Made by a program: the position numbers and the translations under genes
Notes under the pieces: generated by a model
What the model was told of the DNA's origin: nothing
Databases searched by the model: none
The model's input: the letters and a program-made list of their open reading frames with translations, nothing else
In this document: piece by piece, positions 1,615-64,000 of the stretch
How positions within the stretch are numbered: the first letter of the stretch is position 1
Layout: each line of letters begins with the position of its first letter
NCBI GenBank assembly: GCA_003056085.1
Contig: LSNK01000001.1
Span: 152,729-216,728, forward strand
Reading direction: 5' to 3'
Length of the DNA stretch: 64,000 bases
Origin: Parcubacteria group bacterium M6-OD1-1
Lineage (GTDB): Bacteria > Patescibacteriota > Minisyncoccia > GWC2-36-17 > M10-OD1-4

Positions 1615-2094
1615 TCATAAGCCGTATGGTTCGTCCAACGGCTTTTTCTTTCGCCTATATACGGGGTTATTTGAAATAATAGGGTATTTTGCTAAAATTA
1701 AGAGTGCTCTATGTGGGTCGAATGTTTAATACAAAATAGCTTGAAAAAACCCGACTCGCTACGCTCCCTGAGCTGCTGTTTATTAGCCAATCACTACACC
1801 TAAAGGTACTGCGTTTTAAAACCAATCGCTCTGCTCTTGGATAAAACGGGAGTATTCTTGGACAAACAGGGAGCATTTACCACCCTACCTTACCAATTTT
1901 GTCCAAATTTTAATTTAACAACAAAACGTTCCCGATTTATTCAAATTTTTAATTTGATAATAAATCGCAATACCCTTGTGGCGCAGTCCTCTTGAGGGTT
2001 TGGGCTCTAAGCGGGTCACTCTTAACCAAAACCCACAGATTTAAATCTGTGGGTTTTGGTTTTCCTAAAAGGGTTCCTGACCCCTTATTTTCTT

Positions 2095-6180: not shown

Positions 6181-6262
6181 AAAGGTGTCAGAAGAAAAAG
6201 GTGTCAGGTACCTTTTATTTTATTAAATAAAATACAAGTAAAAAGGTGTCAGGTACCTTTTT
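6180..6262. repeat. three tandem copies or half-copies of the AAAAGGTGTCAGGTACCTTTT repeat
   Basis: aaaaggtgtcag, then aaaaaggtgtcaggtacctttt, then aaaaggtgtcaggtacctttttt. The 3' flank (attttattaaataa-aatac) is also conserved with copy 1. Confidence 0.7.
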
Positions 6263-7912: not shown

Positions 7913-8326
7913 ATGAAACCAATATATCTACAATTTAACTGCAAGGAATCTAATGAGCTGGACATGCGTCAAGCTGATGCAATTTTAAAGTATAAGCCTG
8001 ATATCATAATTCTTGAGTATCCGAACAACAACAAAACTCCTAACCTGCCTCTTAATAAATATTCCGCTTTAAAAAAGCCAAAAAACTTAGTAAAAAAACG
8101 CCTCAAAAAGTTTTCTGATAAAGTTTTAAAAATTCATCCCTGGGCTGAAGCAGACACTATAATGTGGAAGAATGTTGCGAGCCTTTGGGAAAAAGATCAT
8201 CAAGTTTTAATATATTCAGTAGATGCCCCAAACGAGCTGACAGAAGAACTGCGAGAAGTATGGAACTATACATATCCATGTATTAAAAAAAAATTGGATA
8301 TGGTGGGTAAGAATATACTTGCGTGA
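7913..8326 (+). CDS. hypothetical protein
   Basis: ORF only. Abuts the next ORF by an 8-bp overlap. Confidence 0.35.
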   Translation: MKPIYLQFNCKESNELDMRQADAILKYKPDIIILEYPNNNKTPNLPLNKYSALKKPKNLVKKRLKKFSDKVLKIHPWAEADTIMWKNVASLWEKDHQVLIYSVDAPNELTEELREVWNYTYPCIKKKLDMVGKNILA

Positions 8327-8579
8327 GAAGATTATGGCAAAAAACATTCAATGGATATTAGACAACTACAAAGAAAAGAAAGAGCCTAAAGTTTTAGTAT
8401 TTTTACAAAGCTTTCATTGGGATCATGTAAAATTTTTACTAAACAATCCATCTAAAAATAAGATATGGAACTACTATTTCGGAAATTTTTCTGAAATAGA
8501 CAAACAAAGCATCGGAAACAAAATAAAAAATATAAACAAGGTATTTTATAAATATTGGAGTAAAATATCTGATTTTTAA
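8319..8579 (+). CDS. hypothetical protein (probable true start at ATG 8334)
   Basis: ORF only, with overlap and possible coupling to the previous ORF. Confidence 0.3.
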   Translation: MREKIMAKNIQWILDNYKEKKEPKVLVFLQSFHWDHVKFLLNNPSKNKIWNYYFGNFSEIDKQSIGNKIKNINKVFYKYWSKISDF

Positions 8580-8687
8580 TATACAGTAAACTTTTTGGAT
8601 TCAGCTTAAGGATGAATCCTCCACCAAACGCTCCAAATACACCATTTGGAGCGTTTGGTGCATTATAAGAGAGAAAGGTGGAGAAAT

Positions 8688-8766
8688 GTGTCAGGTACCT
8701 TTTATTTTATTAGAGTAAGAAAAGATATCATGAAAAAGGTAGCAGGTATCTTTTTTCCTAAGAATT
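8688..8766. repeat. two degenerate copies of the AAAAGGTGTCAGGTACCTTTT repeat
   Basis: gtgtcaggtaccttttatttt at 8688-8708 and aaaaaggtagcaggtatctttttt at 8743-8766. Confidence 0.55.
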
Positions 8767-8831
8767 TAATAAATAGCCAGCTCATTTCGTAGTGAAAATA
8801 ATAGAGCAAAACCAAAGAAATCCTTTCCTTT

Positions 8832-9878
8832 TTAATTAAAATAATTATTTACAGCGTCTTCAAATTGCTCGATAAATATTTTTTTAAAATAAAAAATATT
8901 ATTTATCTCATAGAATAATAAGCTTGCCTTTTTGTATTCCCCAACATCTACAATCCTATAAGAAAATGGTATTGAATTATGTGCTAATAAAATAGCATTT
9001 GAAAGCATACGAGCTGTTCTTTTATTTCCATCCTCAAAAGCCTGAATATATGAAATTAAAATTAACCCAAGAAAAGCTTTTTCAAAAAATAATTCTTTTT
9101 TATTTATTAGGTCAATCATTCTTTCTAAGACTTCCTTAAGTTGAAATAAATTATCCAATGGCTTATATTTTGTAGCAGTAATACCCACCGCATTATTCCT
9201 AATATTTTTTGTAATATTAAGTTTTTTGGTTAAAACAGAATGAATATATTCAATATCAGAATAATTTAATTTTTTAAATCTCTCTTTGTTTAAAATAGAC
9301 TCATTAAAAGCATCTTTATGATTAAGAATCATTTGAGTCTCTTTTTCCGTTTTTCCTTTCCCAACAATATTTTCCTTAATCAAAGCTTCCGTACTTAAAA
9401 GTGAGTAAGTATTTCCCTCTATGACTGAAGATTTCCAAGAAAATTCAATCATTATTCTTTCAAATTCTTTATTTATAAGAGTTTGACTATCATATTCAGA
9501 AAAATTTTTTATAAACTCCCTTTGTAATTTTTCAATTTTTGCCTTTTCTTCTTTAGTGAAAATATCACCTTCCAAAATATTAAAAATTTCAAAATTAAAA
9601 CTTTTTTTTACTTCTCTTTCTGTGTATGGAATAGAAAAATATTTTTTAGCATCAATTTTATTTATAATTTCATAATTTTCAGACAAAGAGTAGATTACGC
9701 CTCTTCCTAATCCTTTTTTAAAAATTAAAAACTTTTCTTCTAGTTCTTTTAAATCTCTTTGTAGTGTTTTTCTATCAATATCCACACTCAAAAAAGACAG
9801 AATATCAGACACCGATACTTCTGTCCTTTTCTTTATAAAAGTAATAATTTTATCTTGTCTTTTTTGCTTTTTATTCAT
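8832..9878 (-). CDS. Fic/DOC-family protein with N-terminal winged-helix domain and a degenerate Fic motif (QAFEDGNKRTAR)
   Basis: The core motif aligns to HPFx(D/E)GNGRxxR. His is replaced by Gln and the second Gly by Lys. Basic N-terminal HTH-like region. Confidence 0.6.
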   Translation of the reverse strand: MNKKQKRQDKIITFIKKRTEVSVSDILSFLSVDIDRKTLQRDLKELEEKFLIFKKGLGRGVIYSLSENYEIINKIDAKKYFSIPYTEREVKKSFNFEIFNILEGDIFTKEEKAKIEKLQREFIKNFSEYDSQTLINKEFERIMIEFSWKSSVIEGNTYSLLSTEALIKENIVGKGKTEKETQMILNHKDAFNESILNKERFKKLNYSDIEYIHSVLTKKLNITKNIRNNAVGITATKYKPLDNLFQLKEVLERMIDLINKKELFFEKAFLGLILISYIQAFEDGNKRTARMLSNAILLAHNSIPFSYRIVDVGEYKKASLLFYEINNIFYFKKIFIEQFEDAVNNYFN

Positions 9879-9896
9879 ATATAAACAATATAATTA

Positions 9897-10002
9897 ATTG
9901 CGACATTTTACAATACTAATTGCGACACCTTTAAAGTATTTATTCATAAAATCGTTATTTATAGCAGTTTTATTGCGACATTTTATAATACTAATTGCGA
10001 CA
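9897..10002. promoter_or_regulatory. four direct copies of ATTGCGACA (two 30-bp units) upstream of the Fic gene, a candidate operator
   Basis: Copies at 9897-9905, 9919-9927, 9972-9980 and 9994-10002, with spacing 22/53/22 bp. They begin immediately upstream of the start codon at 9878. Confidence 0.4.
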
Positions 10003-10034
10003 TATTATAACTCCCCTTGAGAATACCTTTTCCA

Positions 10035-10070
10035 AAAAAGGTGTCAGAAAAGGTGTCAGGTACCTTTTTT
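10035..10070. repeat. half-site plus full copy of the AAAAGGTGTCAGGTACCTTTT repeat
   Basis: aaaaaaggtgtcag followed by aaaaggtgtcaggtacctttttt. Confidence 0.65.
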
Positions 10071-10107
10071 CACTCATTTATAAAAATAATATTTTTTTTC
10101 ATATAGA

Positions 10108-10365
10108 TTATTTAATATTTTTTGAAGAATTATCTGATATTTTTACTTTTAGAAAAACGAGTATTATAAATAGAATAATAAATAATAAGAAAGAAATTGC
10201 ATAATAAGGAACTGCGTGATCTAAAAGATTATATACATAAGGACAACCAGGATTATTATCGCCAGAATTAGGCATTATAACTTTTCGAACTATTAATTGC
10301 ATACCGATTAAAATACCGATATTAACCCAAAATAAAATATATATAATTTTATAAATTTTTATCAT
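10108..10365 (-). CDS. small hydrophobic membrane protein
   Basis: 85 aa with two hydrophobic stretches. 4-bp overlap with the upstream gene. Confidence 0.3.
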   Translation of the reverse strand: MIKIYKIIYILFWVNIGILIGMQLIVRKVIMPNSGDNNPGCPYVYNLLDHAVPYYAISFLLFIILFIILVFLKVKISDNSSKNIK

Positions 10366-11402
10366 TTCTTAAAACAACCGATAAACCAAGCTCTTTTTAG
10401 AGTTATCTCCCCTTTTTCTGCACCAATAGAAAGATACTTTCCGTCTCTACCGTTCCCACTCTTAATTGTTACATTATCACAAGAATTTATTTTGTCTAAA
10501 TATTTTTCTTTAAAAGTATTATACGCATAATTTTTCTTTTTTTGAATATCCGTACAAGCATTAGCATATTCTCCACAGTACTCAAAACTCACACCATACA
10601 AAGACTCCTCTTTTCCAGTTTCCAGATTAATCTTTGTAAGCCTCGCTGCAGCAACTCCTGCATCACCCATAGAATAAATAAGTAAAAGTGAATTTTTATC
10701 TGGCATATAATCAACTACTGTTACAATTCCAACAGGTGAGGTTTCTATTTTGTCAACTATAATTTTATTTTGTTTTGATTTATTATTATAAACCCCCAAA
10801 ACACACGACATTCTTTCTGAACAACCATTTCTTAAATAAAATACTAAATTACCTGAAACATAAAAATCATTTATATTGGAATTTTCAGAAAATTCCAATT
10901 GATTAGTATTTTTAGTTTTTATATCAAAATAATTTATCTTTCCCTTCTTATTTATAAAATAAATTTTATCCCCCTCAAGTCTTGGCTTAGCTATCCATGG
11001 CTCTGTTGAAACAAAACCAATTTTTTGTTCTGTCTCAGTTTTTGTATTAAAAATAGAAAAGAAAAAAGCGTTTTCGTAATGATTGTTTTCTGTTGGTGTT
11101 CTTTCTTCTTTTAAAATAAGTAATCCTGAGTTTAAATTCTCAAAAGAAATGATCGGAAAACTTTTTATAAGTTTATCTATTTTAAGTTTAGTGCTTGTTG
11201 CTATGTTAAAAAAAGGCGGTGAAATATTGACAATATTTTTAGGAGGCTCAACTCCAATACCTCTATTATAAACTGAATCTGCACTTGAAGCTTTTTTGAA
11301 AACTGCCAAATTATACTTTTCAATAAAATAAAAAACACTAAAAATAATCAATCCGGAAATAATCAATGCTCCAATTATTAAAATATTACTTTTATTAAAC
11401 AT
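10362..11402 (-). CDS. hypothetical membrane-anchored or secreted protein
   Basis: N-terminal hydrophobic anchor. No other motif. Confidence 0.4.
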   Translation of the reverse strand: MFNKSNILIIGALIISGLIIFSVFYFIEKYNLAVFKKASSADSVYNRGIGVEPPKNIVNISPPFFNIATSTKLKIDKLIKSFPIISFENLNSGLLILKEERTPTENNHYENAFFFSIFNTKTETEQKIGFVSTEPWIAKPRLEGDKIYFINKKGKINYFDIKTKNTNQLEFSENSNINDFYVSGNLVFYLRNGCSERMSCVLGVYNNKSKQNKIIVDKIETSPVGIVTVVDYMPDKNSLLLIYSMGDAGVAAARLTKINLETGKEESLYGVSFEYCGEYANACTDIQKKKNYAYNTFKEKYLDKINSCDNVTIKSGNGRDGKYLSIGAEKGEITLKRAWFIGCFKK

Positions 11403-11427: not shown

Positions 11428-12348
11428 TTAACTTTCTAAAACATTAAATCCATTAAATATGGCATCACACATAAAATCTTCCAATAAACTGGAATCTCCA
11501 CTTTGTTGAGACTTATTTAAATAATTATAATAAAATCTTTTATTTTCTTGCTTAATAACTGCTGGCGGTAAATTTCTTCTCAAAAACATCGCTACCACAA
11601 TAAGACGCCCAATTCTTCCGTTGCCATCAGAAAAAGGATGAATTTTCTCAAAATCACTATGTATTTGAGAAATATGTTTTACTACATCATCTTCTTCTTT
11701 ATTTATATTTTTTATTAGCCTTACTACTAACTCTGGGACTTTCAAATAATTAGCAGTAGGAATATTGGCTCCGACAATTCTCACCCCATGATTTCTATAA
11801 AAACCCGCATCATCTCTAATGCTATTCATTAAAATGCTATGTAATTTTAAAATTAATAATTCTGTAATTTTAAAATTTGGCTTAATCTGTTTAAATAAAA
11901 ACTGTAAAGCTGTTTGATGATTTTTAGCCTCTAATTGTTCAATTAAATTTCTGTTTTTCAAAGATATGTTCCGAAATAAAATATCTGCAGTTTCATTTTC
12001 AGTTAAAGTACTGCCTTCTATGCTGTTTGTATTGTAAGTTAAAGATAAAATAAACTGATCATAAATATCTTTACGACTGATGATTTCTTTTAATATGTTT
12101 GTGTATTTTTTTGATTTATTGTAAATAACATCTTTTTTTGCTTGTAAAATATTATCTGGAATAATTTTTTGCCCTGTGTATTTTTTATACAATTCATCAA
12201 TCAACTCCCGCCTTCTTTTGTGAGGAACTGATTTGTTATTGATCCAGCTATTTAAAGTTGCAAAAGACACCTCCAGCTCATAAGCAATTTTTTCTTGAGT
12301 TAAGCCTGAAATTTGTTTAATTAATTTTAGTTTCTCTGATGTATTCAT
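11428..12348 (-). CDS. Fic-family protein (AMPylase-type) with N-terminal XRE-like HTH
   Basis: Canonical HPFSDGNGRIGR motif. N-terminal LTQEKIAYELEVSFATLNSWINNK helix-turn-helix. Confidence 0.8.
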   Translation of the reverse strand: MNTSEKLKLIKQISGLTQEKIAYELEVSFATLNSWINNKSVPHKRRRELIDELYKKYTGQKIIPDNILQAKKDVIYNKSKKYTNILKEIISRKDIYDQFILSLTYNTNSIEGSTLTENETADILFRNISLKNRNLIEQLEAKNHQTALQFLFKQIKPNFKITELLILKLHSILMNSIRDDAGFYRNHGVRIVGANIPTANYLKVPELVVRLIKNINKEEDDVVKHISQIHSDFEKIHPFSDGNGRIGRLIVVAMFLRRNLPPAVIKQENKRFYYNYLNKSQQSGDSSLLEDFMCDAIFNGFNVLES

Positions 12349-12421: not shown

Positions 12422-12566
12422 CTCTAAGCAAAACAAAAAATCTTTCAATTTCTTGAAAGATTTTTTGTTTTATTGTTTTTCTGTCTTAAACAAATGTTAA
12501 AGCATTTCCTTTGCTGTCTCCTCTGCCTGTTCTGCCTATTCTGTGGACATAGTCGTTGTATGACTG
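12422..12566. repeat. 145-bp direct repeat, copy A: orphan 27-codon 3' end of the DEAD-box helicase gene plus terminator hairpin
   Basis: Identical to 18305-18449. Contains the hairpin aaaaaatctttcaa-tttc-ttgaaagatttttt and an out-of-context coding tail ...YNDYVHRIGRTGRGDSKGNALTFV* on the minus strand. Confidence 0.85.
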
Positions 12567-12614
12567 CGTTTTGAGTTACTTTAAATAGTTGATATTTCAT
12601 GCAAATATTATAAA

Positions 12615-18304: not shown

Positions 18305-18449
18305 CTCTAAGCAAAACAAAAAATCTTTCAATTTCTTGAAAGATTTTTTGTTTTATTGTTTTTCTGTCTTAAACAAATGTTAAAGCATTTCCTTTGCTGT
18401 CTCCTCTGCCTGTTCTGCCTATTCTGTGGACATAGTCGTTGTATGACTG
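18305..18449. repeat. 145-bp direct repeat, copy B: native 3' end of the helicase gene plus terminator
   Basis: Identical to 12422-12566. Confidence 0.85.
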
Positions 18450-19622
18450 AGGTATTGTGTAGTTTATAACATGAGTGATGTCTTTAATATCAAGACCTCT
18501 TGCCGCTACGTCTGTTGCAACTAAAATATTTATTCTGCTTTGTCTGAAGTGCGTTAAAGACCTCTGTCTTTGATGCTGTCTTTTGTCTCCATGAATAGAA
18601 TCAACCTTAAATCCATTTCCTCTTAAGTTGACTGTCAGTTCTTCTACATCTTTTTTAGTTTCTGAAAAGACGAGAACTTTTTTAAACTCAGGGTCAGAAA
18701 GAATACCTTTTAATGTATCTATTTTTGAAGCGTTTTTAACTCTTACAATATCTTGGTCAACATTGTCTGCTGTTTTGCCGACTTGAACAGACACCGTAAC
18801 GGGATTACGCAAAAATTGGTCTGTTATTCTTTTAATTTGATCCGGCATTGTAGCAGAAAAGAAAAGCGTCTGTCTTTTTGAATCAGTTTTGCTTAAAATT
18901 TCTCTTATGTCATCTATAAATCCCATATCTAACATCCTGTCTATTTCATCCACCACTACATTATTAAAAGATCTCAAATTAAGAGCGCCTCTTTTTTCAA
19001 GGTCTTTTAATCTCCCTGGTGTGCCTATTATGAAATTTGGATTTCTTTTTAAATCTCTTAACTGTTTGTGTATCGGCATACCTCCTATACATGTTGTTGA
19101 GTAAAGATTCATACCGTAAGCAAAAAGCTTGAACTCGGTTTCTATTTGGGAACAAAGCTCGCGCGTTGGAGCGATAATCAAAACTTTTTCCGTGCGGCTG
19201 CCGGCTACTTTATTTATCTGAGGCAATAAAAATGCTCCTGTCTTGCCTGTTCCTGTGTTTGCAAGCCCAACAACATCTTTCCCTTCAAGTATATACGGGA
19301 TGGATTGGTCTTGTATGGGAGTTGGTTTAACAAATTTTCTTCTTTTTATATTTTCCTGTATCTTTTCAGAAAAATTAAAATCAGCAAACAAATTATTTAC
19401 TTTTATTTTCTCGCTTTTTACGCCGGAAGCCTTTTTGACAAACTTAGATATGTCTATGTTGTTTGACCTTCTTTTAAACCCTCTTCCTTTGTATCCTCCG
19501 CTTCTTTTACCGGAACGATGCTTTGAAAAGCTGCCGTACGATTTTGAGTTTGTTGATGACCTGTTTTTATTACCACCAAATCTATTACCAGACCTCTGTC
19601 TGGATTTATTATTATTATTCAT
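18369..19622 (-). CDS. DEAD-box ATP-dependent RNA helicase
   Basis: Q-motif region, GTGKT Walker A, DEID (DEAD variant), SAT and HRIGRTGR motifs. Arg/Gly-rich N-terminus. Confidence 0.85.
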   Translation of the reverse strand: MNNNNKSRQRSGNRFGGNKNRSSTNSKSYGSFSKHRSGKRSGGYKGRGFKRRSNNIDISKFVKKASGVKSEKIKVNNLFADFNFSEKIQENIKRRKFVKPTPIQDQSIPYILEGKDVVGLANTGTGKTGAFLLPQINKVAGSRTEKVLIIAPTRELCSQIETEFKLFAYGMNLYSTTCIGGMPIHKQLRDLKRNPNFIIGTPGRLKDLEKRGALNLRSFNNVVVDEIDRMLDMGFIDDIREILSKTDSKRQTLFFSATMPDQIKRITDQFLRNPVTVSVQVGKTADNVDQDIVRVKNASKIDTLKGILSDPEFKKVLVFSETKKDVEELTVNLRGNGFKVDSIHGDKRQHQRQRSLTHFRQSRINILVATDVAARGLDIKDITHVINYTIPQSYNDYVHRIGRTGRGDSKGNALTFV

Positions 19623-38284: not shown

Positions 38285-39016
38285 TTATACTCCTATTTTT
38301 AAAAGTTGATCTTTTACGCCATTGGATTCGGCCAGTTCTTTTGCTTTTTTAAGAAAAAGACTGCCGTCTTCCCTGATTTTGTTCATTAGCTTGCCGCAAT
38401 TTTTGTAAATCCTAATTGCTTGGTTTACATCATATTTTTCAACTCCTCCTGCAAGCAAAGCGGCTTTTCTTATGTATTTTTTTGAAAAATTCCATTCGTT
38501 GAGATCTCTCGTATAATTTTCAGCAAGTCCTATATAAAAAAGAGCACAAGTATGCAAAGATATATCCTTCTTTTTAAGCCCGATTCTGATACAACTTACA
38601 GCTTCTCTAAACTTGCCGCATCTTCTGAGAATACTCTGCCTAATATCGCATTTATCTGCCGAAAAATTATGATAACCTCCGGCATACTTAAGCGATTTGT
38701 TTGATAATAGCAACATTCTCAAATAACACCAGCCGCCAAGCGGAAGCCAAGTTACCAAGAAAAAAGGAAGAGTTACAGGCAAAACGAGCAATGCCCACGA
38801 TGACTTAAAAAGCGATTTAAATTTTGCTGCTGTTGTGTCCGCAATAGAATAATAACTGCTGGAAAGAAATGAATAACCATCTGAGTTTTCCATTGTATTT
38901 TTAGATGACAGTTGGTTTGCGACACAATCATGCGAATCCATAAATAAAAAACTTTTATCCCAAAATGAATCTTTGTACCAACTTGATTGATAAGCTGATT
39001 CATAAACAGAAATCAT
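38285..39016 (-). CDS. hypothetical membrane protein
   Basis: ORF with a hydrophobic segment. Confidence 0.35.
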   Translation of the reverse strand: MISVYESAYQSSWYKDSFWDKSFLFMDSHDCVANQLSSKNTMENSDGYSFLSSSYYSIADTTAAKFKSLFKSSWALLVLPVTLPFFLVTWLPLGGWCYLRMLLLSNKSLKYAGGYHNFSADKCDIRQSILRRCGKFREAVSCIRIGLKKKDISLHTCALFYIGLAENYTRDLNEWNFSKKYIRKAALLAGGVEKYDVNQAIRIYKNCGKLMNKIREDGSLFLKKAKELAESNGVKDQLLKIGV

Positions 39017-39237
39017 AATTTTCTCCTCGTTTGTATTTAACTATAAAAGACCTAAAACTTTATGATGCCCACAATAACACACTTTAAAGAAAAATCAAGC
39101 TGTGTATGGTGCATATTAAACCCGCTTGCATCATAAAACAAAAACTGACTAAATATAGTCAATTTTTGTTTTATGTACTGAAATACTAACCTTTGCTCGA
39201 ACCTACTTTGATAAACAATCGCAAAGCGATTGACCTT

Positions 39238-39406
39238 TTCCACGCGCCCCGCGCGGTGGTAGATTCAAACTTTATTTTTCGCTCCGGTAATGCGGATAAA
39301 GAAAGGGAACGCTCCGCGTACTTTCTCTCTCGCTCTCTAGGACGCGAACAACTAACTCATCCGCGCCACTCGCCTCGCTCCGCTACGGCGAGCCCCAAAA
39401 ACAAAA
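39238..39406 (-). ncRNA. candidate structured RNA of unknown class (GC-rich patch)
   Basis: About 170 bp that is far more GC-rich than its surroundings, with no credible ORF. A strong GC hairpin lies at 39238-39259. The minus-strand reading starts GGGGCUCGCC, and minus-sense hairpin/T-run elements follow at 39216-39232 and 39133-39174. The class could not be assigned. Confidence 0.25.
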
Positions 39407-39554
39407 TTTGCCTTTTCCTTTTTCAAAAAAAATTAGGGGACGAAAAAAGGATAAAAACGCAAAGGCAAAATTTTGGTTTTTTGTGGGTTCGCCTTATAGT
39501 ATAATATATCACATTATTTTAATAAAACATAATATAATATAATATATAATATAA

Positions 39555-39788
39555 ATGTTGATAATCAAAAATACATTTATGAATAACAAAGCAGTACAGA
39601 GGTTTGGAAAAAATATGAAGAAAATTCGCGAAGCGAAGAAAATGTCGCAAGGCGATATTTATCGTGCAACAAAGATTGAGCGTGCATACATCAGTAATCT
39701 TGAAGCGGGTAAACAAAACCCCACTCTCGAAACAATGGAGAAAATCGCCAACGCGTTGAGGGTTAAGGTTTCAGATTTAACAAAATAA
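39555..39788 (+). CDS. XRE-family HTH transcriptional regulator
   Basis: MSQGDIYRATKIERAYISNLEAGKQNPTLETMEKIANAL is a classic Cro/C1-type HTH. Confidence 0.6.
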   Translation: MLIIKNTFMNNKAVQRFGKNMKKIREAKKMSQGDIYRATKIERAYISNLEAGKQNPTLETMEKIANALRVKVSDLTK

Positions 39789-39790
39789 GT

Positions 39791-40386
39791 ATGAATAAAA
39801 CAAAACAAAAAAAATGCAATTTTAATACATGGCACTTGTAGCAGAGAGGAGTATTATTCCGACAAACATCCCACTCTGAGCAATAGCCACTGGTTACCAT
39901 GGTTGTCCAAACAATTGATGACTTCTGACATTCCAACAATCGCGGTAGAAATACCAAATACCAAATGTCTACATGCCAAATTATGCTGTTTGGAAAAGAG
40001 AGTTTGAAAGATTTGACATTGGACCAGAAACAATCTTAGTCGGACACAGTTGCGGCGGCGGATTCTTAGTTAGATGGCTTTCAGAAAATAATGTGCAAGT
40101 TGGGAAAGTTGTACTATTAGCTCCTTGGTTAGATCCAGAGAAAAGCAAGGGTGTCGATAATAATTTTTTTAAATTTGAAATGCGTAAAGACTTAGTAAAT
40201 CAGACAAAAGGAATCACTCTTTTTGTAAGCAAAGATGACGACAGCGATATTCAAGTGAATGTTGAGAAAATATTGAGCAATATCGGTGATATAAAAAAGA
40301 TTAAGTTTGATAACCATGGACACTTTACTTTGCACAATATGGGAACAGAAAAGTTTCCAGAATTATTGAAAGAAATTATCAAATAA
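39791..40386 (+). pseudogene. RBBP9/YdeN-like alpha/beta serine hydrolase disrupted by two frameshifts
   Basis: The N-terminal ILIHG...HWLPWL segment, the middle segment and the GHSCGG nucleophile-elbow segment lie in three different frames. The first shift is at an A8 run (39807-39814). The second is at a 7-bp tandem duplication, accaaat twice (39953-39966). Confidence 0.5.
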
Positions 40387-40396
40387 AAAATTCAAT

Positions 40397-41218
40397 ATGG
40401 AAAAACTTAAAACAAAACTCAAAACATACAACAATGTTTATGTTGGTAATATTAACGGACAAAAAGTCATTGTGAAAAACATAACACCCGCTGAAAAAGA
40501 GTTTTTTGCGGTATCTACCGACTCGGTTTCAAGTAAGTACATTTCCACTCCATTAAAAATAACTGGTTCGGAGGCACAATATCTTTTTATTGAAGGTGGC
40601 GACATTGTCGGAAAAGACAAGAATACTTGGCTTAAAGCCGTACGAGTAATTGCATCGATTTGTACCATTGATTTACAATCAAAACAAAAACATCAATCTA
40701 TACCAAATGATGATGTCCAAAAATATCTTGAAAAAATAAATAATGTTGAGTTACTTGCAAATCAACATGGAGGGCACCTGAATGCAGAAAATTTCGTATT
40801 TATGCGAAAGATTTTAGACAAATTAGATCTATCAGAAAGTTTTTCTCATGATGACACGATTGCTTTAAATATTTTGTCATCCAATAACGAAGTAAAAATT
40901 ATAGACTGGGAACATGTAAAAATAAGCTTTGCTGAAAATGACATTGGTCGCTTTTTATCAGACCTTTACTGGGAAAATCCAAAAAGTGACAAATATTATT
41001 ATCCTAGCGAATGGCACGATGATTTACTGGGTGAATATTTGAATGAGAGACTCAAAATGAACCCAAATTTAGATTCAAAACAAGTTTTGGAAAACATAAA
41101 ATTTGCAAAAATGTGGAACTATCTCGGTCCGATATTTAGCATATTAAGTAAAGGCGATAAATTAGAGTCGGATTGGTTTTTGGCGAATATTGAAGCTTTT
41201 AACTTGCTTTCTAACTAA
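40397..41218 (+). CDS. APH-like phosphotransferase-family protein
   Basis: HGGHLNAENF (Brenner-like) and IIDWE motifs. Confidence 0.45.
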   Translation: MEKLKTKLKTYNNVYVGNINGQKVIVKNITPAEKEFFAVSTDSVSSKYISTPLKITGSEAQYLFIEGGDIVGKDKNTWLKAVRVIASICTIDLQSKQKHQSIPNDDVQKYLEKINNVELLANQHGGHLNAENFVFMRKILDKLDLSESFSHDDTIALNILSSNNEVKIIDWEHVKISFAENDIGRFLSDLYWENPKSDKYYYPSEWHDDLLGEYLNERLKMNPNLDSKQVLENIKFAKMWNYLGPIFSILSKGDKLESDWFLANIEAFNLLSN

Positions 41219-41266
41219 AATAATCTAACTAACTTAAAGACAAATTGTTAAAGTAATAAAACGAAT

Positions 41267-41683
41267 ATGAAATTAATTTTAGCTAGACATGGAGAAACAA
41301 TAGAAAATGCTACAGGCGTTTTACAGGGGCACTTGCAAGGTAAACTGTCCGAGTGAGGTCTTGCGCATGTGAAAGAACTTGCTGAGAAAATCAATGACGA
41401 TTTGCCAGATAAAATATATTCAAGCGACTTGGCACGAGCCAAAGATACAACAAACATAGTTGCTGAGAAACATCCAAATATCCCAGTTGAGTTTACGGAA
41501 CAGTTGCGCGAGCGCGATATTGGCGAGTTTACTGGCAAAACTAAGAAAGAGTCAGGGAAAGAAAATGAGAAGTTTCTGGTCACTTCACTCAACACTCCAA
41601 AACAACTCGATAACAAGCTTGTTGCTTACGCAACACCGCTCGCCGTTTTTCTATGTTTTGTGAACTTAGCACTAACTTTCTAG
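41267..41683 (+). pseudogene. histidine-phosphatase (phosphoglycerate-mutase family) gene with an in-frame TGA at 41354-41356
   Basis: LARHGET (RHG catalytic motif) ... LSE-[TGA]-GLAHVKELAEKI ... SSDLARAKDT, continuous in one frame across the stop. The ORF track finds only the 3' part (41369-41683). Confidence 0.55.
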
Positions 41684-41699
41684 AAGAAATATTTTCTAG

Positions 41700-42455
41700 C
41701 TATTTTTTCGATTTCAAAACCTCTCTTATCTGCTCATTTAAATCTATTTTCTTTCCAAAATTTTGGAGTGCCAATATGATTGATTTCATTGATTTTGCAA
41801 AAGAAGAACTTTCTATTTCAACTACGGACTTTTCGTTGAAATTAAAAATATATATAAAATCTTTATAAACAATTATCATATCTTTAAAATTCAAATATTC
41901 ATCTGGGATTGTATACACTATCGTCATTCTACCGAGCATATTCTCTAGAGTTTTTTTGTCGTAATTTTCCAAAAGTTTTATATTTTTGACACTTGATACA
42001 CCAACGGATATGTTCTTTCTTTTTTTGAATAGCTCAGCAATTGCAGAAATAGTATTTTGCTCTATTGAAGAAACAAATTTCTCCATTTGATGATATGGCT
42101 CAATAAAATATATTCTCTCGTTACTTTTGTTTTTTAATATCTTTACAATAATGCTATCTATGTTTTTCAGTGAATAGTAATTTGTAACTTTAAAATTATT
42201 GTCTCCTTTTTCTTCCAAAATAATATTTTTTGCATAATCATTGAGGGTCCATTCAAAATGTCCACCAATCTGTTCTCTTTTAACCAACCCTCTTTCACCC
42301 ATTTTTCTCAGTCGAAAAGATACACTGGTTCTTTGCAAATCAAGCTGTTTAGAAAGGGGGAGTATCTTGCTTCTACCAAGTTCATTTAGAGTGGAAAGTA
42401 TTCGGAAGTCTTTTTCAGATAGTCCTAAGTTTTTGATTCTTTTTGTATATCTCAT
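41700..42455 (-). CDS. winged-helix regulator-like protein
   Basis: N-terminal MarR/ArsR-like wHTH (LSTLNELGRSKILPLSKQLDLQRTSVSFRLRKM). Confidence 0.35.
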   Translation of the reverse strand: MRYTKRIKNLGLSEKDFRILSTLNELGRSKILPLSKQLDLQRTSVSFRLRKMGERGLVKREQIGGHFEWTLNDYAKNIILEEKGDNNFKVTNYYSLKNIDSIIVKILKNKSNERIYFIEPYHQMEKFVSSIEQNTISAIAELFKKRKNISVGVSSVKNIKLLENYDKKTLENMLGRMTIVYTIPDEYLNFKDMIIVYKDFIYIFNFNEKSVVEIESSSFAKSMKSIILALQNFGKKIDLNEQIREVLKSKK

Positions 42456-42617
42456 CTCCTCATTATAATACTGACAAGAATATTGTCAATATAATTGATA
42501 AAAAATCCTTGTTTTAAAGCACAAAACAGTAAATCGGCATTTTTTATTACAAATTAGACTCAAATATCAAATAATACTAACAGAGCACGAAGTACTTCGT
42601 TAATCAACAATAGGAGA

Positions 42618-42851
42618 ATGATTATGTTTAAAAAAGCTTCGTTATGTGGTATCGGACTATGTGTGGAAGTAGACACCACACCAAAAGCTGGAGTTGGCGG
42701 TTTTGCCGGACCAGCAAAGATTGGGAAAGAGGGTAAGAAAAATGTTGCGATTCGCAATAGTAAAAATCCTGATCTTGTAATTTTGTTCACATACGATGAA
42801 TGGCGCGTATTTCTCGTCGGAGTGAAAAATGGCGAATTTGACGTCAAATAA
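42618..42851 (+). CDS. hypothetical small protein
   Basis: ORF followed by a strong terminator. Confidence 0.3.
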   Translation: MIMFKKASLCGIGLCVEVDTTPKAGVGGFAGPAKIGKEGKKNVAIRNSKNPDLVILFTYDEWRVFLVGVKNGEFDVK

Positions 42852-42864
42852 TGTGGACTTCATC

Positions 42865-42895
42865 GCGGGCATGTTTACATGCCCGCTCTTTTTTT
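42865..42895 (+). terminator. rho-independent terminator
   Basis: gcgggcatg-ttta-catgcccgc followed by TCTTTTTTT. Confidence 0.7.
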
Positions 42896-42916
42896 AATAT
42901 AGCGAAGGAGCATGCG

Positions 42917-43195
42917 ATGACAATTAAAGAAATGTGTCTTTGTGACTATGTAGAATTGTTTATCTGCCGCAATATAAACTGTAACGAGCCGGCACAATAC
43001 TTAATAGTGGCATCGGAGGAAGATATCCTCGTCGATATTTTAATTCCTCGTCCATTATGCAGGTGCCATTTTGAAGAACTCCGAAGTTTATTTGAACAAT
43101 CAAGTATTAATCTAAAATGTGTTGAGTTGTGGAAGTATAAGAAATTAGAGAAGTTACACGATTGTGTAAATTTAACATCTGACACGAAGGGTTGA
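42917..43195 (+). CDS. small cysteine-rich (putative zinc-binding) protein
   Basis: CxC...CxxxxC...CxC pattern. The start is moved to MTIKEM downstream of the terminator. Own terminator at 43221-43247. Confidence 0.35.
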   Translation: MTIKEMCLCDYVELFICRNINCNEPAQYLIVASEEDILVDILIPRPLCRCHFEELRSLFEQSSINLKCVELWKYKKLEKLHDCVNLTSDTKG

Positions 43196-43305
43196 ATCAA
43201 TACTGGGTGGTGTTATTTCAAGCAGGTGCTTCGCGCCTGCTTTTTTGTGGAATGGGAGTAGAAAAATAACAACTATTTTAAAATGGTTGTTATTTTTATT
43301 TATTT

Positions 43306-43327
43306 GTGCCGGGGAGAGGACTTGAAT
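43306..43327. repeat. 22-bp duplicate of the tRNA-Leu 3' end (att-like remnant)
   Basis: tgtgccggggagaggacttgaa is identical to 43456-43477 (the 3' 20 nt of tRNA-Leu plus 2 nt), in the same orientation 128 bp away. Confidence 0.7.
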
Positions 43328-43335
43328 ACTCCCGA

Positions 43336-43382
43336 GTACTGCGTTTTAAAACCAATCGCTCTGCTCTTGGATAAAACGGGAG
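43336..43382. repeat. 47-bp segment identical to 1806-1852
   Basis: gtactgcgttttaaaaccaatcgctctgctcttggataaaacgggag at both loci. Confidence 0.7.
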
Positions 43383-43412
43383 CCTTCGGTTCAAGTCAAT
43401 CCAGACCGCAAT

Positions 43413-43452
43413 AAAACAAAAAACTGACTATGTTTAGTCAGTTTTTTGTTTT
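43413..43452 (-). terminator. palindromic terminator downstream of tRNA-Leu
   Basis: aaaacaaaaaactgacta-tgt-tagtcagttttttgtttt. A related hairpin lies at 39133-39174. Confidence 0.55.
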
Positions 43453-43457
43453 ATGTG

Positions 43458-43541
43458 TGCCGGGGAGAGGACTTGAACCTCCACAGGGTTACCCCTAATA
43501 GCTTCTAAGGCTACCGCGTCTACCAATTCCGCCACCCCGGC
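43458..43541 (-). tRNA. tRNA-Leu (anticodon UAG), CCA not encoded
   Basis: Reverse complement reads GCCGGGG-UG-GCGGAAUUGGUAGACGCG-GUAGC-CUUAGAA-GCUAU-long variable arm-GGAGGUUCAAGUCCUCU-CCCCGGC-A. Cloverleaf with anticodon UAG and a type-II long variable arm. Confidence 0.85.
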
Positions 43542-43706
43542 AAAAGTTTTTTATTTAATTTAATGCCATCCACAAAACATAGTAATATTATTTATGGTGG
43601 ACGCGAGTCTGCCAACCTGTCCCGTACAAAGCTTTGCTTTGTACGGGGTTCCGCCACCCCGACTCTTAATAACCTATACTACACTTTTTTCTTTTCTTTT
43701 TCAAGA

Positions 43707-43748
43707 TTAAAAATTTAAATTTTACCACTTCCTCACGACCGTGACTAT
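43707..43748. repeat. 42-bp hairpin repeat, copy 1 of 2, flanking the PaaX-like gene
   Basis: aaattttaccacttcctcacgaccgtgactatgtggtaaaat with a 10-bp stem attttaccac/gtggtaaaat. Copy 2 at 44379-44420 differs at 2 positions. Confidence 0.7.
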
Positions 43749-43825
43749 GTGGTAAAATATATATTATATGTAATGAGTAGTATATAATGTTAAATATAAT
43801 TAAAGATAAGTTTTAAATTAAACTA

Positions 43826-44377
43826 ATGCAATTAAAAAGTACTACTAAAAAGAAAATTTTATTGCTTCTTGCTGCTGGAATTGAGCTTGGAGTAAATAGA
43901 TCGCCATTAGGTCATATAAGAATATATAAACGCCTCAATAAAGAATGGGGAGAAATTAATAAAGAAATACTAAGAAGATCTATTCATGAATTTTATAGAA
44001 AAAAAATCTTGAAATTCCAAAAAAATAAAAATGGCTCTACTACTGTAATAATAACAGAAAATGGAAAAAATGCTGCTATGAAATATAAAATAGAAAACTT
44101 AGAAATTAAAAAACCTGGCTCTTGGGATAAAAAATGGCGGGTGGTTATATTTGATGTACCGGAAAATAGAAGATGGGCAAGAGATATTTTAAGATCAAAA
44201 ATAAAAAGTCTTGGTTTTATTGAACTTCAAAAAAGTGTTTGGATATATCCTTATAATTGCAAAAATATCATTAAACTTATTACTGATTTTTTTGAAATAG
44301 AAAAATTTGTACAATATATGACCGTGAGTGACATAACCAATGAGAAAGAAATGAAACTAAAATTTAATCTTGAATAA
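43826..44377 (+). CDS. PaaX-like regulator-domain protein
   Basis: WDKKWRVVIFDVPENRRWARDILRSKIKSLGFIELQKSVWIYP matches the PaaX C-terminal block WDGxW...DVPE...R...LGFG.L...VW..P. Confidence 0.5.
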   Translation: MQLKSTTKKKILLLLAAGIELGVNRSPLGHIRIYKRLNKEWGEINKEILRRSIHEFYRKKILKFQKNKNGSTTVIITENGKNAAMKYKIENLEIKKPGSWDKKWRVVIFDVPENRRWARDILRSKIKSLGFIELQKSVWIYPYNCKNIIKLITDFFEIEKFVQYMTVSDITNEKEMKLKFNLE

Positions 44378-44378
44378 T

Positions 44379-44420
44379 AAATTTTACCACTTCCTCACGA
44401 CCGTGATTGTGTGGTAAAAT
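44379..44420. repeat. 42-bp hairpin repeat, copy 2, immediately after the PaaX-like stop codon
   Basis: aaattttaccacttcctcacgaccgtgattgtgtggtaaaat. Confidence 0.7.
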
Positions 44421-44512
44421 TTAAACTTATTATTTTTCTGTAATTTATTTTTTTTTAAATTAATCAATTTTTATGCTAAAATATACATTAAATATACTTA
44501 AAATAAAATCTT

Positions 44513-57447: not shown

Positions 57448-57629
57448 GTCTGCTCCTTGTAGCTCGGCATCCCGAGCGGTTGTTTTTTAAAGTCACATCC
57501 CAGCTGACAACTTAATCCATCAGCTTCAAAGACACATTAACATCTTTAGAAAAACTTGTCAATAGCCTGTGGATATGTTATATTATTTTAGTGTTCATTT
57601 AAATGTATTTATCCGGAGCAAATATCAAG

Positions 57630-58062
57630 ATAAATAGACAATCGCTCTTTTGTTTGCTTGCAAGCGAGAGAGAGGAAAGTCCGGACTCCAACTATTATTT
57701 ATAATAGTTAAAACGCAGCGGCTAACAGCCGTCAAAGGAAACTTAGAGGTGCGAGCAGAGACGCCGATATTGGAAACGATATTCGGGCGATTCATTTATT
57801 TGGATCGTAGCCCCTTACTTGCTTGCAAGTAAGGGGGTGAAACGGCTAAATCCTTGCGGGGTGCAAGACAGTATTCCCCTTCACTTGGTTTTTTGAGTAA
57901 ATTTTTAAGTTGAATTTATACTTAAAATTTTCATTCACAAGCCCAAGTGAGGGGGAGGTAGTCGCATGAGCTTATTAGTAATAATAAGCCAAGATAAATG
58001 ATTGTCACCCTTAACTTGCTTGCAAATTAAGGGATACAGAATCCGGCTTATTTTTATCTTTA
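57630..58062 (+). ncRNA. rnpB: RNase P RNA (bacterial)
   Basis: GAGGAAAGUCCGGACUC near the 5' end, GGGUGAAACGG in the middle and ACAGAAUCCGGCUUAU near the 3' end. P1 pairs aagauaaa (5') with uuuaucuu (3'). Terminator at 58128-58158. Confidence 0.85.
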
Positions 58063-58238
58063 TTTGCTCCGAATAAATATATTTAAAATACAAGTTAAAA
58101 ATTCTCAAAAAATTAATTTTAAACATCAAAAAAACCGCTTTTCTAAGCGGTTTTTTTGGTGTTTTTTGGGGTCGGGGATGTAATAAGGTTAGAACCTGTT
58201 TTGTGGGAAAAGTATCTATACCACAATAGAGACTCACA

Positions 58239-62527: not shown

Positions 62528-63871
62528 TTACTCCCAATCAAAATTATAATTAAATTCTGGGACCTTCAGAGGTTCCCCACTCTCTCCAAGTATAGAGGAA
62601 TTAGAAGTATCTAGTATATGAGTTTCATTTGTAATATCGGATATTTCATTTTGTATTATTTTACTTGGATTTGGATTAAACCTTATTCTTACAAAGTCTA
62701 AGTTTTGAAAATCATTAGGTATAGTAAAAATTACATTCCCATCTACAACAGTTATGTTTTCTGCGATACTCCTTGTAGTATTTAAACTATCAACTAAAGA
62801 ATATTGTAAATTTGCTACTTTATACTCAATATTCTCACATAAACAATAGGTTCTAAAAGCTAGCTTCTTAATCTTAAATGGTCTTTCTGATTCAATATCA
62901 AACTTCCTAGGGTCATTTGTATCAGATCTCTTAATGGTAAGTGTTTGGTTTGATGTTTCTAGAGCTCCTGTTTCTGTCTCCTTATTATTACCATTAATAG
63001 ATTCTATTCCATAAGAATACTCAGACCCTGACACTAATCCGCTTATGTTAGCTATGTGCTTTCCAGAGGTTCCTGAAATTGAGAAAAATACTTGAGTTTT
63101 ACCATAGCCAGTTATAAAAACTTTTCCAGTTGTAGGGATATTTGTAGACCATGAAATAACAGCATCAACTAAACCAGGTTCTATTTTTACATCACTAATA
63201 ATAACATTCTCTTCTTCTGGTGTAGTTGTGGTTTCTTCTGTGTTAGTTGTAGTTTCTGTTGTAATTGAATCCTGAGATTCTGTATCATTACTGACTACTT
63301 CTGGAGTTGTATTTTGTTTTACATCACTGAATCTTAATTCTGTTTTTTCTGGATAAAAACTTGGTAATGCTTCTGTATGATTAACTTGATAGATTGAGTC
63401 CCAATCATAGCCAGCCTGTTCAAATTCTGAAGCTGTTAAATTAAGCCATCTTCTTTCTCCACTATCACTACCTGAAGCAGAAGTAACTATATATACTTTT
63501 GGGTCTGCTACTGAACCATCTGCATTAACTTCTATAACAAGCTCCGACAACATGAATTGGTCTTGGTCAGTTTGAGATACTGTCTTTACATCCTCCCATT
63601 TAAGATGCCCATAGGAATTGAAAATATCTGGATTTAGTATAAGTCTTTTAAATTTCTTACTACCTACCAACTTCACAATGTAAATATCTGGATTCTCAGA
63701 AGTAGTTATTAAATCACCATCTACTAATTCCCCTAACGTATACGTTTGAGCAAAAGCTGAAGAATAGATAAAAAAACTAAATACTAATACTAAAAAGATG
63801 GTTATTTTTTTCATATTTATTTTCATATTAATAATTTTTGTAACAAAAAAGGTCCCCCGAACCAGTGACAA
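62528..63871 (-). CDS. secreted surface protein with Thr/Glu-rich linker
   Basis: Signal-peptide-like MKKITIFLVLVFSFFIYSSAFAQ. TTETTTNTEETTTTPEEEN low-complexity linker. Confidence 0.4.
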   Translation of the reverse strand: MSLVRGTFFVTKIINMKINMKKITIFLVLVFSFFIYSSAFAQTYTLGELVDGDLITTSENPDIYIVKLVGSKKFKRLILNPDIFNSYGHLKWEDVKTVSQTDQDQFMLSELVIEVNADGSVADPKVYIVTSASGSDSGERRWLNLTASEFEQAGYDWDSIYQVNHTEALPSFYPEKTELRFSDVKQNTTPEVVSNDTESQDSITTETTTNTEETTTTPEEENVIISDVKIEPGLVDAVISWSTNIPTTGKVFITGYGKTQVFFSISGTSGKHIANISGLVSGSEYSYGIESINGNNKETETGALETSNQTLTIKRSDTNDPRKFDIESERPFKIKKLAFRTYCLCENIEYKVANLQYSLVDSLNTTRSIAENITVVDGNVIFTIPNDFQNLDFVRIRFNPNPSKIIQNEISDITNETHILDTSNSSILGESGEPLKVPEFNYNFDWE

Positions 63872-64000
63872 CTTCTTTTCGAAGTCATCCTGTTCCTTTC
63901 AGAGACAGACCACGGTAGCAGTACTGGTCAGGAGACCATTATTACTACCGTGGATTTACCGCCATGCCTTTAAAAATAAAGGTTTAGGTGATTAAATTGT
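63840..64000. other. GC-rich non-coding patch truncated by the window end (possible structured RNA)
   Basis: Hairpin ccacggtag...ctaccgtgg and other GC-rich stems. No ORF. Incomplete. Confidence 0.15.

Follow-up and report, generated by a model that had tools for sequence, protein, structure and literature searches.

Displaced ends of a tRNA-Leu(UAG) gene in a Parcubacteria genome: a probable recombination hot spot at the tRNA 3' end

Tyrosine-integrase elements use attachment (att) sites in tRNA genes, as exemplified by the satellite phage P4, which is found at the 3' end of a tRNA-Leu gene. Decayed islands and cis-mobilizable elements (CIMEs) are bounded by att sites, lack an integrase, and are accreted in tandem, with known CIMEs being kilobases long; other recombination sites are folded single strands, including the attC sites of integrons and the forked hairpin attP(+) of CTX-phi. 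As general background, elements that integrate into tRNA genes supply their own copy of the tRNA segment, and the tRNA gene fragments that are left by integration have been described (PMC9897764). Here we examine a stretch of 64,000 nt (the window) from Parcubacteria group bacterium M6-OD1-1 (contig LSNK01000001.1, positions 152,729 to 216,728), in which the tRNA-Leu(UAG) gene is accompanied by a 22-nt repeat of its own 3' end. An initial annotation of this DNA had proposed that a tRNA-Leu-targeting element once sat here and was almost entirely deleted.

We interpret the 3' end of tRNA-Leu(UAG) as a recombination hot spot in Patescibacteria, and the 22-nt repeat as one of several insertion junction scars, with a probability of roughly 0.55. 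Fragments of tRNA 3' ends are routine markers of integration, and in this respect the core finding is ordinary; what is unusual is a recurring module, in which an inverted partial copy of the tRNA segment (INV), a hairpin, and a direct copy (DIR) follow one another, and the bracketing of the tRNA gene on two sides.

The tRNA-Leu(UAG) gene and its displaced ends

The sole tRNA gene in the window is tRNA-Leu(UAG), on the minus strand at 43457-43541 (ARAGORN; Rfam RF00005 tRNA, 58.9 bits). The sequence TGTGCCGGGGAGAGGACTTGAA has two exact occurrences in the window by pattern match (43305-43326 and 43456-43477 in plus-strand coordinates), as against 0 expected by chance (100 shuffles). On the tRNA strand the repeat reads TTCAAGTCCTCTCCCCGGCACA, and it begins with the first base of the T-loop, continues through the 3' strands of the T and acceptor stems, and ends two bases (CA) past the discriminator. 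The proximal copy (43456-43477, minus strand) consists of the last 21 nt of the intact tRNA and one flanking base, such that a functional-type tRNA is kept at the proximal junction, with the ARAGORN call and Rfam score given above. The distal copy (DIR; 43305-43326, minus strand) is direct and identical to the tRNA 3' part at 22/22 positions. The repeat reported by the initial annotation is thus real, with the tRNA 3' end where it had been placed; the distal copy lies at 43305-43326, rather than 43306-43327. A second, divergent tRNA gene or a tRNA pseudogene was considered as the source of the distal copy, and rejected: there is one ARAGORN tRNA, and no further Rfam tRNA at E<=10 within 42800-44100. 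DIR is also present in an independent assembly (Logan contig L003), which includes the side of the accessory island described below, the distal repeat, and the first 30 nt of a 47-nt hairpin, and then breaks; the break inside the hairpin is what would be expected of a k=31 assembler at a repeat. Because L003 carries both the distal repeat and the island junction, neither is an artefact of a single assembly.

Between the two copies lies a gene-less insert of 129 nt (43327-43455, minus strand), which comprises, in the direction of the tRNA, a terminator-like hairpin (hairpin B), INV, and the 47-nt hairpin, the latter closed by an outer CUCCCG/CGGGAG stem. Hairpin B (AAAACAAAAAACTGACTA..TAGTCAGTTTTTTGTTTT plus a T-run; 43411-43454; 44 nt, 91% self-complementary) directly follows the tRNA, and is probably a terminator. 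It corresponds to the palindromic terminator that the initial annotation had recognized between the copies, although neither hairpin B nor the other AT-rich hairpins at this locus are called by a simple consensus terminator scan. INV (43388-43397, plus strand) is an inverted copy of the tRNA segment GGTTCAAGTC, with a 10-nt exact inverted match (43470-43479 / 43397-43388); a weaker similarity to the tRNA, also inverted, runs on to ~43410. In the predicted fold, INV pairs with DIR across a stem of 8 bp, thereby closing a hairpin module (43302-43408; -31.6 kcal/mol, z score -1.9). Directly after the distal repeat is another hairpin with a T-run (hairpin C, AATAACAAC..GTTGTTATT; 43262-43297; 36 nt, 94% self-complementary). 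Searches of Rfam 15 with the 47-nt hairpin, the modules, and the 5' fragment described below gave no match, only weak hairpin-type (miRNA/sRNA) chance matches far below gathering scores. Precise loss of the 151-bp unit would leave a junction of GGAGG with TTCAAGTCCTCTCCCCGGCACAAATAAATAAAAATAAC, and an excised circle of the unit would join ...CGGGAGTA, the core (the repeated tRNA 3' part), and CATAAAACAAAAAAC.

The HtrA-like protease encoded beside the tRNA has its closest homologues in Azambacteria/Parcubacteria-type Patescibacteria, and five related loci (L006, L008, L010, L012, and L013; HtrA identity 63-73%) were used as the comparison set. In L006, L010, and L013, the order is aminoacyl-tRNA synthetase, PrsW, HSP20, VanW-like protein, terminator, tRNA-Leu(UAG) (on the opposite strand), htrA, and GDE_C; L013 has an extra gene between VanW and the tRNA, the 240-aa product of which is 48% identical to that of a 243-aa gene in the window (38285-39016). 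L008 and L012 have other DNA downstream of the tRNA than these three loci. An extra copy of the tRNA 3' end is found in 0/5 relatives (<=700 nt searched), and all five have the terminator-tRNA-Leu-htrA arrangement without an extra core copy, which represents the unoccupied site. Compared to these relatives, the window has extra DNA at both sides of the tRNA: a 4.2-kb block and a PaaX-like gene. The cross-strain comparison envisaged by the initial annotation yields plain sites in these relatives, in support of an insertion hot spot. In L012, a mercury-resistance cluster (MerA-like, MerT, HMA; 434-2580) is situated downstream of tRNA-Leu(UAG), in place of the VanW-side synteny.

The tRNA gene is also accompanied by a fragment of its 5' end. 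This fragment (43596-43663, minus strand; 120 nt upstream of the intact gene) comprises tRNA positions 1-15, with GTCGGGGTGGCGGAA providing a 13-nt exact match to the tRNA 5' end at offset -120, and then TTGGCAGACTCGCG; a palindrome whose 12-bp stem is perfect (43621-43647; fold z -3.3) splits it within the D-loop. The intact tRNA is therefore bracketed by its own 5' fragment and its own 3' fragment. DNA upstream of the 5' fragment aligns with the regions upstream of tRNA-Leu in L010, L012, L013, and L014 (the last being a different Paceibacterota genome), and the ancestral tRNA-Leu promoter (TTGAAA-17-TAGTAT; 43676-43704, minus strand; promoter scan) now reads into the 5' fragment; the DNA upstream of the intact tRNA does not align with this conserved upstream region. 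Because the promoter is conserved at the fragment and not at the intact gene, we infer that the fragment marks the ancestral 5' position, and that the intact gene no longer adjoins the promoter it once had. The best promoter-like site of the region (43615-43587, minus strand; TTGGCA-17-AATAAT, 10/12) is composed of the D-loop of the 5' fragment and inserted DNA, and could serve as a promoter driving the intact tRNA. A T/C difference in the D-loop (TTGGTAGAC vs. TTGGCAGAC) was considered as proof of a foreign tRNA and dropped, as T also occurs in L012, L014, L015, and L016 (the last two being Patescibacteria loci described below).

The presence of both end fragments around the intact gene, in the same orientation, might alternatively be explained by a former tandem array of tRNA-Leu genes, in which the 5' and 3' fragments are what deletions have left of neighbouring copies; clusters do occur here, given that a second tRNA (Val) is found upstream of tRNA-Leu in L006. 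This explanation is highly improbable: there is no tRNA-like signal past the fragments, the relatives lack duplicated tRNA-Leu genes, the conserved promoter is at the 5' fragment rather than at the intact gene, and three copies as well as two precise deletions would be required.

Recurrence of the module in other Patescibacteria

One genome per species (185,579 species) was scanned with the pattern HTTCAAGTCCTCTCCCCGGCA, which is the core without the preceding G53 needed for an intact T-stem. The scan yielded three loci, all from Patescibacteria, with every copy situated within about 350 nt of an intact tRNA-Leu(UAG). In L015, the tRNA is followed by a 127-nt insert and a direct core copy, at an offset of 129, compared to 131 in the window. 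L016 carries an array of 182-nt units in tandem after the tRNA, at least two in number and identical, with a core copy at the end of each; the contig begins inside this array. L014 has two core copies, which are inverted, the first of which matches the tRNA 3' end at 20/21 positions (18 exact) and faces the tRNA across a common hairpin.

The layout of the unit is the same everywhere: a post-tRNA hairpin, INV, a structured interior, and DIR. INV is 13-15 nt long in L015 and L016 and 9-11 nt in L014 (10 nt exact in the window), and the closing INV/DIR stems are 13 bp in both L015 and L016, and 9-11 bp in L014 (8 bp in the window). Units of L015 and L016 have fold z scores of -6.5 and -7.4, respectively, and unit 2 of L014 has -4.5, whereas the window has only -1.9. 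The interiors are unrelated from lineage to lineage. In all, the module occurs in four Patescibacteria genomes, which represent at least three distinct lineages, and is missing at 6/10 tRNA-Leu(UAG) loci examined; viral contigs contain neither a core fragment nor an INV/DIR pair.

The flanks of these loci indicate how the DNA came to be there. In L015, the sequence CCAGTAGTAACTTGTT directly follows the distal copy, and a nearly identical sequence comes after the intact tRNA in L016 and also ends an inserted island in L019; therefore, DNA has been inserted between the core and its flank. A relative of L015 (L019; 73% IF-2 identity) has a 2.2-kb island after the tRNA, ending at AGCACCAGTAGTAACTTGTT, which encodes an XRE regulator, a 396-aa protein of unknown function, and a methyltransferase (restriction-modification-like; 8255-10420); it is inserted exactly at the 3' end of tRNA-Leu(UAG), and is flanked by a 9-bp direct repeat (GCACCAGTA). 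Judging from these flanks, at least two different insertions at the tRNA 3' end in the L015/L016/L019 lineage have evidently pushed the original flank away. The block of tRNA plus unit is, furthermore, reversed between L015 and L016 relative to a common pilin-gene flank, and the combination of block reversal and repeated insertion is how a recombination hot spot behaves. Just upstream of tRNA-Leu(UAG), both L015 and L019 have a gene for a free-standing LAGLIDADG endonuclease.

The alternating orientation of the copies raises the question of an origin in situ, with no mobile element involved: replication template switching at hairpins (quasi-palindrome extension) would have copied the tRNA 3' end inverted across the terminator, generating INV, and then back across the next hairpin, generating DIR. 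Alternating copies are what such a process predicts; in the window, INV is directly beside hairpin B and extends its palindrome, and in L014 the inverted copy reproduces the tRNA 3' end at 20/21 positions across the common hairpin. The hairpins at the intact tRNAs are, moreover, of local type, with hairpin B resembling both hairpin A (see below) and the terminator of L013, and with the L015 hairpin recurring after a tRNA-Lys gene. Nevertheless, we regard template switching as unlikely. DIR (21-25 nt, perfect) is longer and better kept than INV (8-15 nt), and was therefore not copied from it; in L015, DIR has at least 10 nt of the original downstream flank, which INV lacks. Template switching also leaves the 5' fragment, the islands, and the tandem 182-nt units unexplained.

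The stability of the folds in L015 and L016, with their 13-bp INV/DIR stems, and of unit 2 in L014, would also suit a structured RNA that originated from the 3' end of the tRNA and is kept by selection (a small RNA linked to the tRNA, a processing decoy, or a 3'-trailer RNA), in which case the module would not be a scar. Consistent with this, the conservation of DIR is perfect, a hairpin and T-run of its own come after it, both internal INV/DIR mismatches (L015; L014 unit 1) are G-U compatible on the tRNA-sense strand, and three pairs of the 47-nt hairpin show compensatory change (see below). However, the two wobble cases are not significant, and terminal wobbles are affected by a stem-extension bias; the fold in the window is weak by comparison (z -1.9). 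The module is situated behind a hairpin and T-run, with no recognizable promoter in a promoter scan and no Rfam match, its interiors differ completely between lineages, and it is missing at the majority of tRNA-Leu(UAG) loci examined (6/10). A functional RNA of this kind is accordingly very doubtful.

Accessory DNA and dispersed repeats in the window

The extra DNA downstream of the tRNA in the window is a 4.2-kb island (39175-43261), situated between the 243-aa gene and the tRNA, and absent from the relatives as judged by synteny with L006, L010, and L013. Its genes encode (Pfam) an XRE regulator, a truncated serine hydrolase, a kinase-like protein, a truncated histidine phosphatase, a TrmB-like regulator, a DUF397 protein, and a 114-aa Cys-rich protein; the island is decaying accessory DNA. 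It is bounded by two 91% similar hairpin terminators of the type found after the tRNA, namely hairpin A (39132-39174), at the far edge of the island from the tRNA, and hairpin B (43411-43455). The distance from hairpin A to the 243-aa gene (116 nt) resembles that from the tRNA terminator to the orthologous gene in L013 (about 110 nt). In the loop of hairpins A and B, the inverted orientation fits slightly better than the direct. Within the otherwise AT-rich island, a G+C-rich non-coding stretch (39220-39400) contains several short GC hairpins (e.g., CCACGCGCCCCGCGCGGTGG); an open reading frame (ORF) overlapping this stretch has no Pfam match.

A single insertion splitting the ancestral gene, with the present tRNA nested within the inserted DNA, was considered and found to be insufficient, because the far end of the inserted DNA does not carry the 3' remainder of the ancestral gene. 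A candidate for a decayed tRNA remainder beside hairpin A (39175 onward) was dropped, given that 27% of random window segments align as well. Because the ancestral 3' remainder is not beside hairpin A, the single nested insertion fails, and at least three repeat-generating events are needed.

On the other side of the tRNA, a PaaX-like gene (43826-44377; Pfam) sits between tRNA-Leu and htrA, where the relatives have no gene, within a segment (43716-44423, plus strand) delimited by a 46-nt direct repeat (43716-43761 / 44378-44423, 93%). The 46-nt repeat holds a hairpin and a -10-like motif (TGnTAAAAT) that also occurs before htrA in L006.

The 47-nt hairpin of the insert (43336-43382) is 100% identical to a second copy in the window (1806-1852), as the initial annotation had noticed, and to a third in a metagenome contig from the same sample series (L005, 893-940). 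The second copy is located between a hydrolase gene and genes for GH18 and GT2 proteins, and the third beside XRE and nuclease-like genes; only the copy at the tRNA locus adjoins a tRNA fragment. The central 24-mer has no match in the 185,579 species genomes, and in JGI metagenomes it occurs in two contigs only, both from the sample series of the window, one of which is the 1806 locus itself. A diverged homologue is present ~190 nt upstream of tRNA-Leu in L014. Aligning the four sequences, 13/13 hairpin pairs are kept, three of them by compensatory change (U-A to A-U, A-U to G-C, and C-G to U-A); this pairing is reached by 10/500 shuffles, and slid registers pair at 17-44%. Conservation of the hairpin by compensatory change is therefore suggested, albeit from only two distinct sequences. 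The GH18/GT2 region has a raised G+C content (0.35-0.41 vs. about 0.27-0.33), and 35-nt hairpin repeats at 480 and 6196 delimit a segment in which the copy at 1806 is internal, rather than at the edge. The initial annotation had taken the shared 47 bp to be the end of an element common to the tRNA locus and the GH18/GT2 region; in view of the copies at 1806 and in L005 that lack a tRNA fragment, we read it instead as a conserved, dispersed hairpin similar to repetitive extragenic palindromic (REP) sequences. Longer elements ending in the 47-mer were likewise not found, the only matches being the 1806 locus and L005, without a tRNA fragment.

The two 35-nt copies (480-514 and 6196-6230) are 97% identical, and bracket the raised-G+C segment with the hydrolase, GH18, and GT2 genes. 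They belong to a REP- or terminator-like hairpin repeat family (AAAAGGTGTCAGGTACCTTTT) with copies in the window at 480, 6196, 6241, 6508 (inverted), 8734, and 10048. Two genes for Fic/DOC-domain proteins (8832-9878 and 11428-12348) are found in an AT-rich stretch (27% G+C) that separates the GH18/GT2 region from another block of 5.9 kb. This higher-G+C block encodes NUDIX, an unknown protein, a ThiC-like radical SAM protein, a thymidylate-kinase-like protein, and KARI, and is flanked by a direct repeat of ~150 nt (12422-12583 / 18305-18466), the two copies of which are almost identical where they align (the repeat finder gives 162 nt at 95%); the repeat is made up of the last part of a gene for a DEAD-box helicase (18369-19622, minus strand), including its 3' end, and the hairpin terminator of this gene. 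The block has the appearance of a further island without an integrase, inserted where a gene ends. The window also encodes class A RNase P RNA (57626-58065, plus strand; 440 nt) and a LOOT RNA (63867-63990, minus strand; 65 bits, above the gathering score).

Proposed events and comparison with known systems

For the tRNA-Leu(UAG) locus, insertions are proposed to have brought with them a copy of a portion of the tRNA gene, with circular DNA integrating in Campbell fashion at a core that would begin at the T-loop and reach the 3' end; the most likely catalyst would be a tyrosine recombinase whose gene lies elsewhere. The DNA between the repeats would then be a small recombining or residual unit (129 nt, with its hairpin terminator, inverted core copy, and 47-nt hairpin), resembling a mini-element that consists of att arms alone, and not a stump left at random by a large element. 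The locus would have required no fewer than three separate events: arrival of the 129-nt module; arrival of the 4.2-kb island, bounded by the duplicated terminator; and an insertion at the 5' side, which would have displaced the first ~26 nt of the gene along with the ancestral promoter.

Several observations weigh against this reading. No integrase, Xer-like or other recombinase, whole or fragmentary, was found by Pfam in the insert, the 4.2-kb island, or the ~40 screened ORFs of the window, and none was found by Pfam among the neighbours of L014 and L015. The distal repeat in the window is followed by hairpin C and the island, and the ancestral-type hairpin is found instead at B, beside the intact tRNA, and at A, 4.2 kb away; this is the reverse of the simplest attL/attR expectation. 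The bases to the left of the distal copies do not include the inverted core-binding half-site that is expected of a double-stranded tyrosine-recombinase core. The search pattern itself dictated the left boundary common to all copies found (it did not constrain the linkage to tRNA-Leu(UAG) or the INV/DIR layout), and support for the module comes from four genomes only.

What remains of the initial proposal is that a displaced or duplicated tRNA 3' end marks a real insertion hot spot, for which the five relatives provide plain sites; the locus is, however, better read as a hot spot with several scars than as the site of one deleted element. The 5' tRNA fragment, the 4.2-kb island, the duplicated terminator, and the PaaX insertion had been overlooked in that proposal, and an integrase or integrase fragment is absent from the insert, the island, and the ORFs screened. 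That a large element was almost entirely deleted is doubtful, and not the most economical view, because gene-less modules of similar size recur beside tRNA-Leu(UAG) in three other Patescibacteria; a small unit composed of att arms, or the stable residue of one, fits better.

The locus provides a comparative example of how accessory DNA can be accreted where no integrase is resident, in the small and poorly understood genomes of the candidate phyla radiation; here, accretion extends to either side of a single tRNA gene and to further sites in the window that are flanked by repeats. Such tRNA fragments can also mislead the annotation of tRNA genes and islands in metagenome-assembled genomes.

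The locus resembles tRNA att sites of the P4 type in that the repeat is the 3' part of a tRNA starting in a loop, with the gene regenerated at the proximal junction, accessory DNA downstream, and empty sites in relatives. It differs from these in the lack of a nearby integrase, in the gene-less 129 nt between the repeats, in the additional presence of a 5' fragment, and in the lack of an ancestral-type flank after the distal repeat of the window. Like CIMEs, it has integrase-less DNA between att-like repeats and several layers at a single tRNA, with tandem units in L016; unlike CIMEs, the units are 127-250 nt. For the 47-mer, the closest comparison is with REP/REPIN sequences, with which it shares the form of a short imperfect palindrome that occurs as identical intergenic copies near terminators. 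There are, however, just three known copies, a homologue with compensatory changes occurs in another Paceibacterota genome, unusual for REPs in view of their species specificity, and no RAYT-like transposase was seen among the screened ORFs of the 64-kb window.

A retron, a TnpB/IscB guide RNA, and the homing spacer of a CRISPR-associated transposon (CAST) were also considered and rejected, there being no adjacent RT, TnpB, or Cas gene, and any "guide" would be sequestered by the inverted copy.

Folded single-strand recombination sites offer the remaining comparison. The core here is the T-arm of a tRNA, rather than dif or the R box of attC, and the direct repeats are longer (21-25 nt, against about 7 nt). 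As in attC and the attP(+) of CTX-phi, however, two inverted core-like copies 65-230 nt apart are predicted to form a long imperfect hairpin, one core copy is continuous with the chromosomal junction, and short gene-less units occur in tandem arrays. From this analogy, it is conceivable, albeit quite unlikely, that Patescibacteria harbour a family of gene-less hairpin modules of 130-250 nt, each closed by INV and DIR of the tRNA-Leu(UAG) T-arm, which might insert, multiply in tandem, and invert at the T-loop of the gene as folded single-stranded or mini-circle att sites, driven by a recombinase encoded elsewhere. If mobile, the hairpin module would be a minimal recombination unit, comparable to the ORF-less cassettes of integrons or the attP hairpin of CTX-phi.

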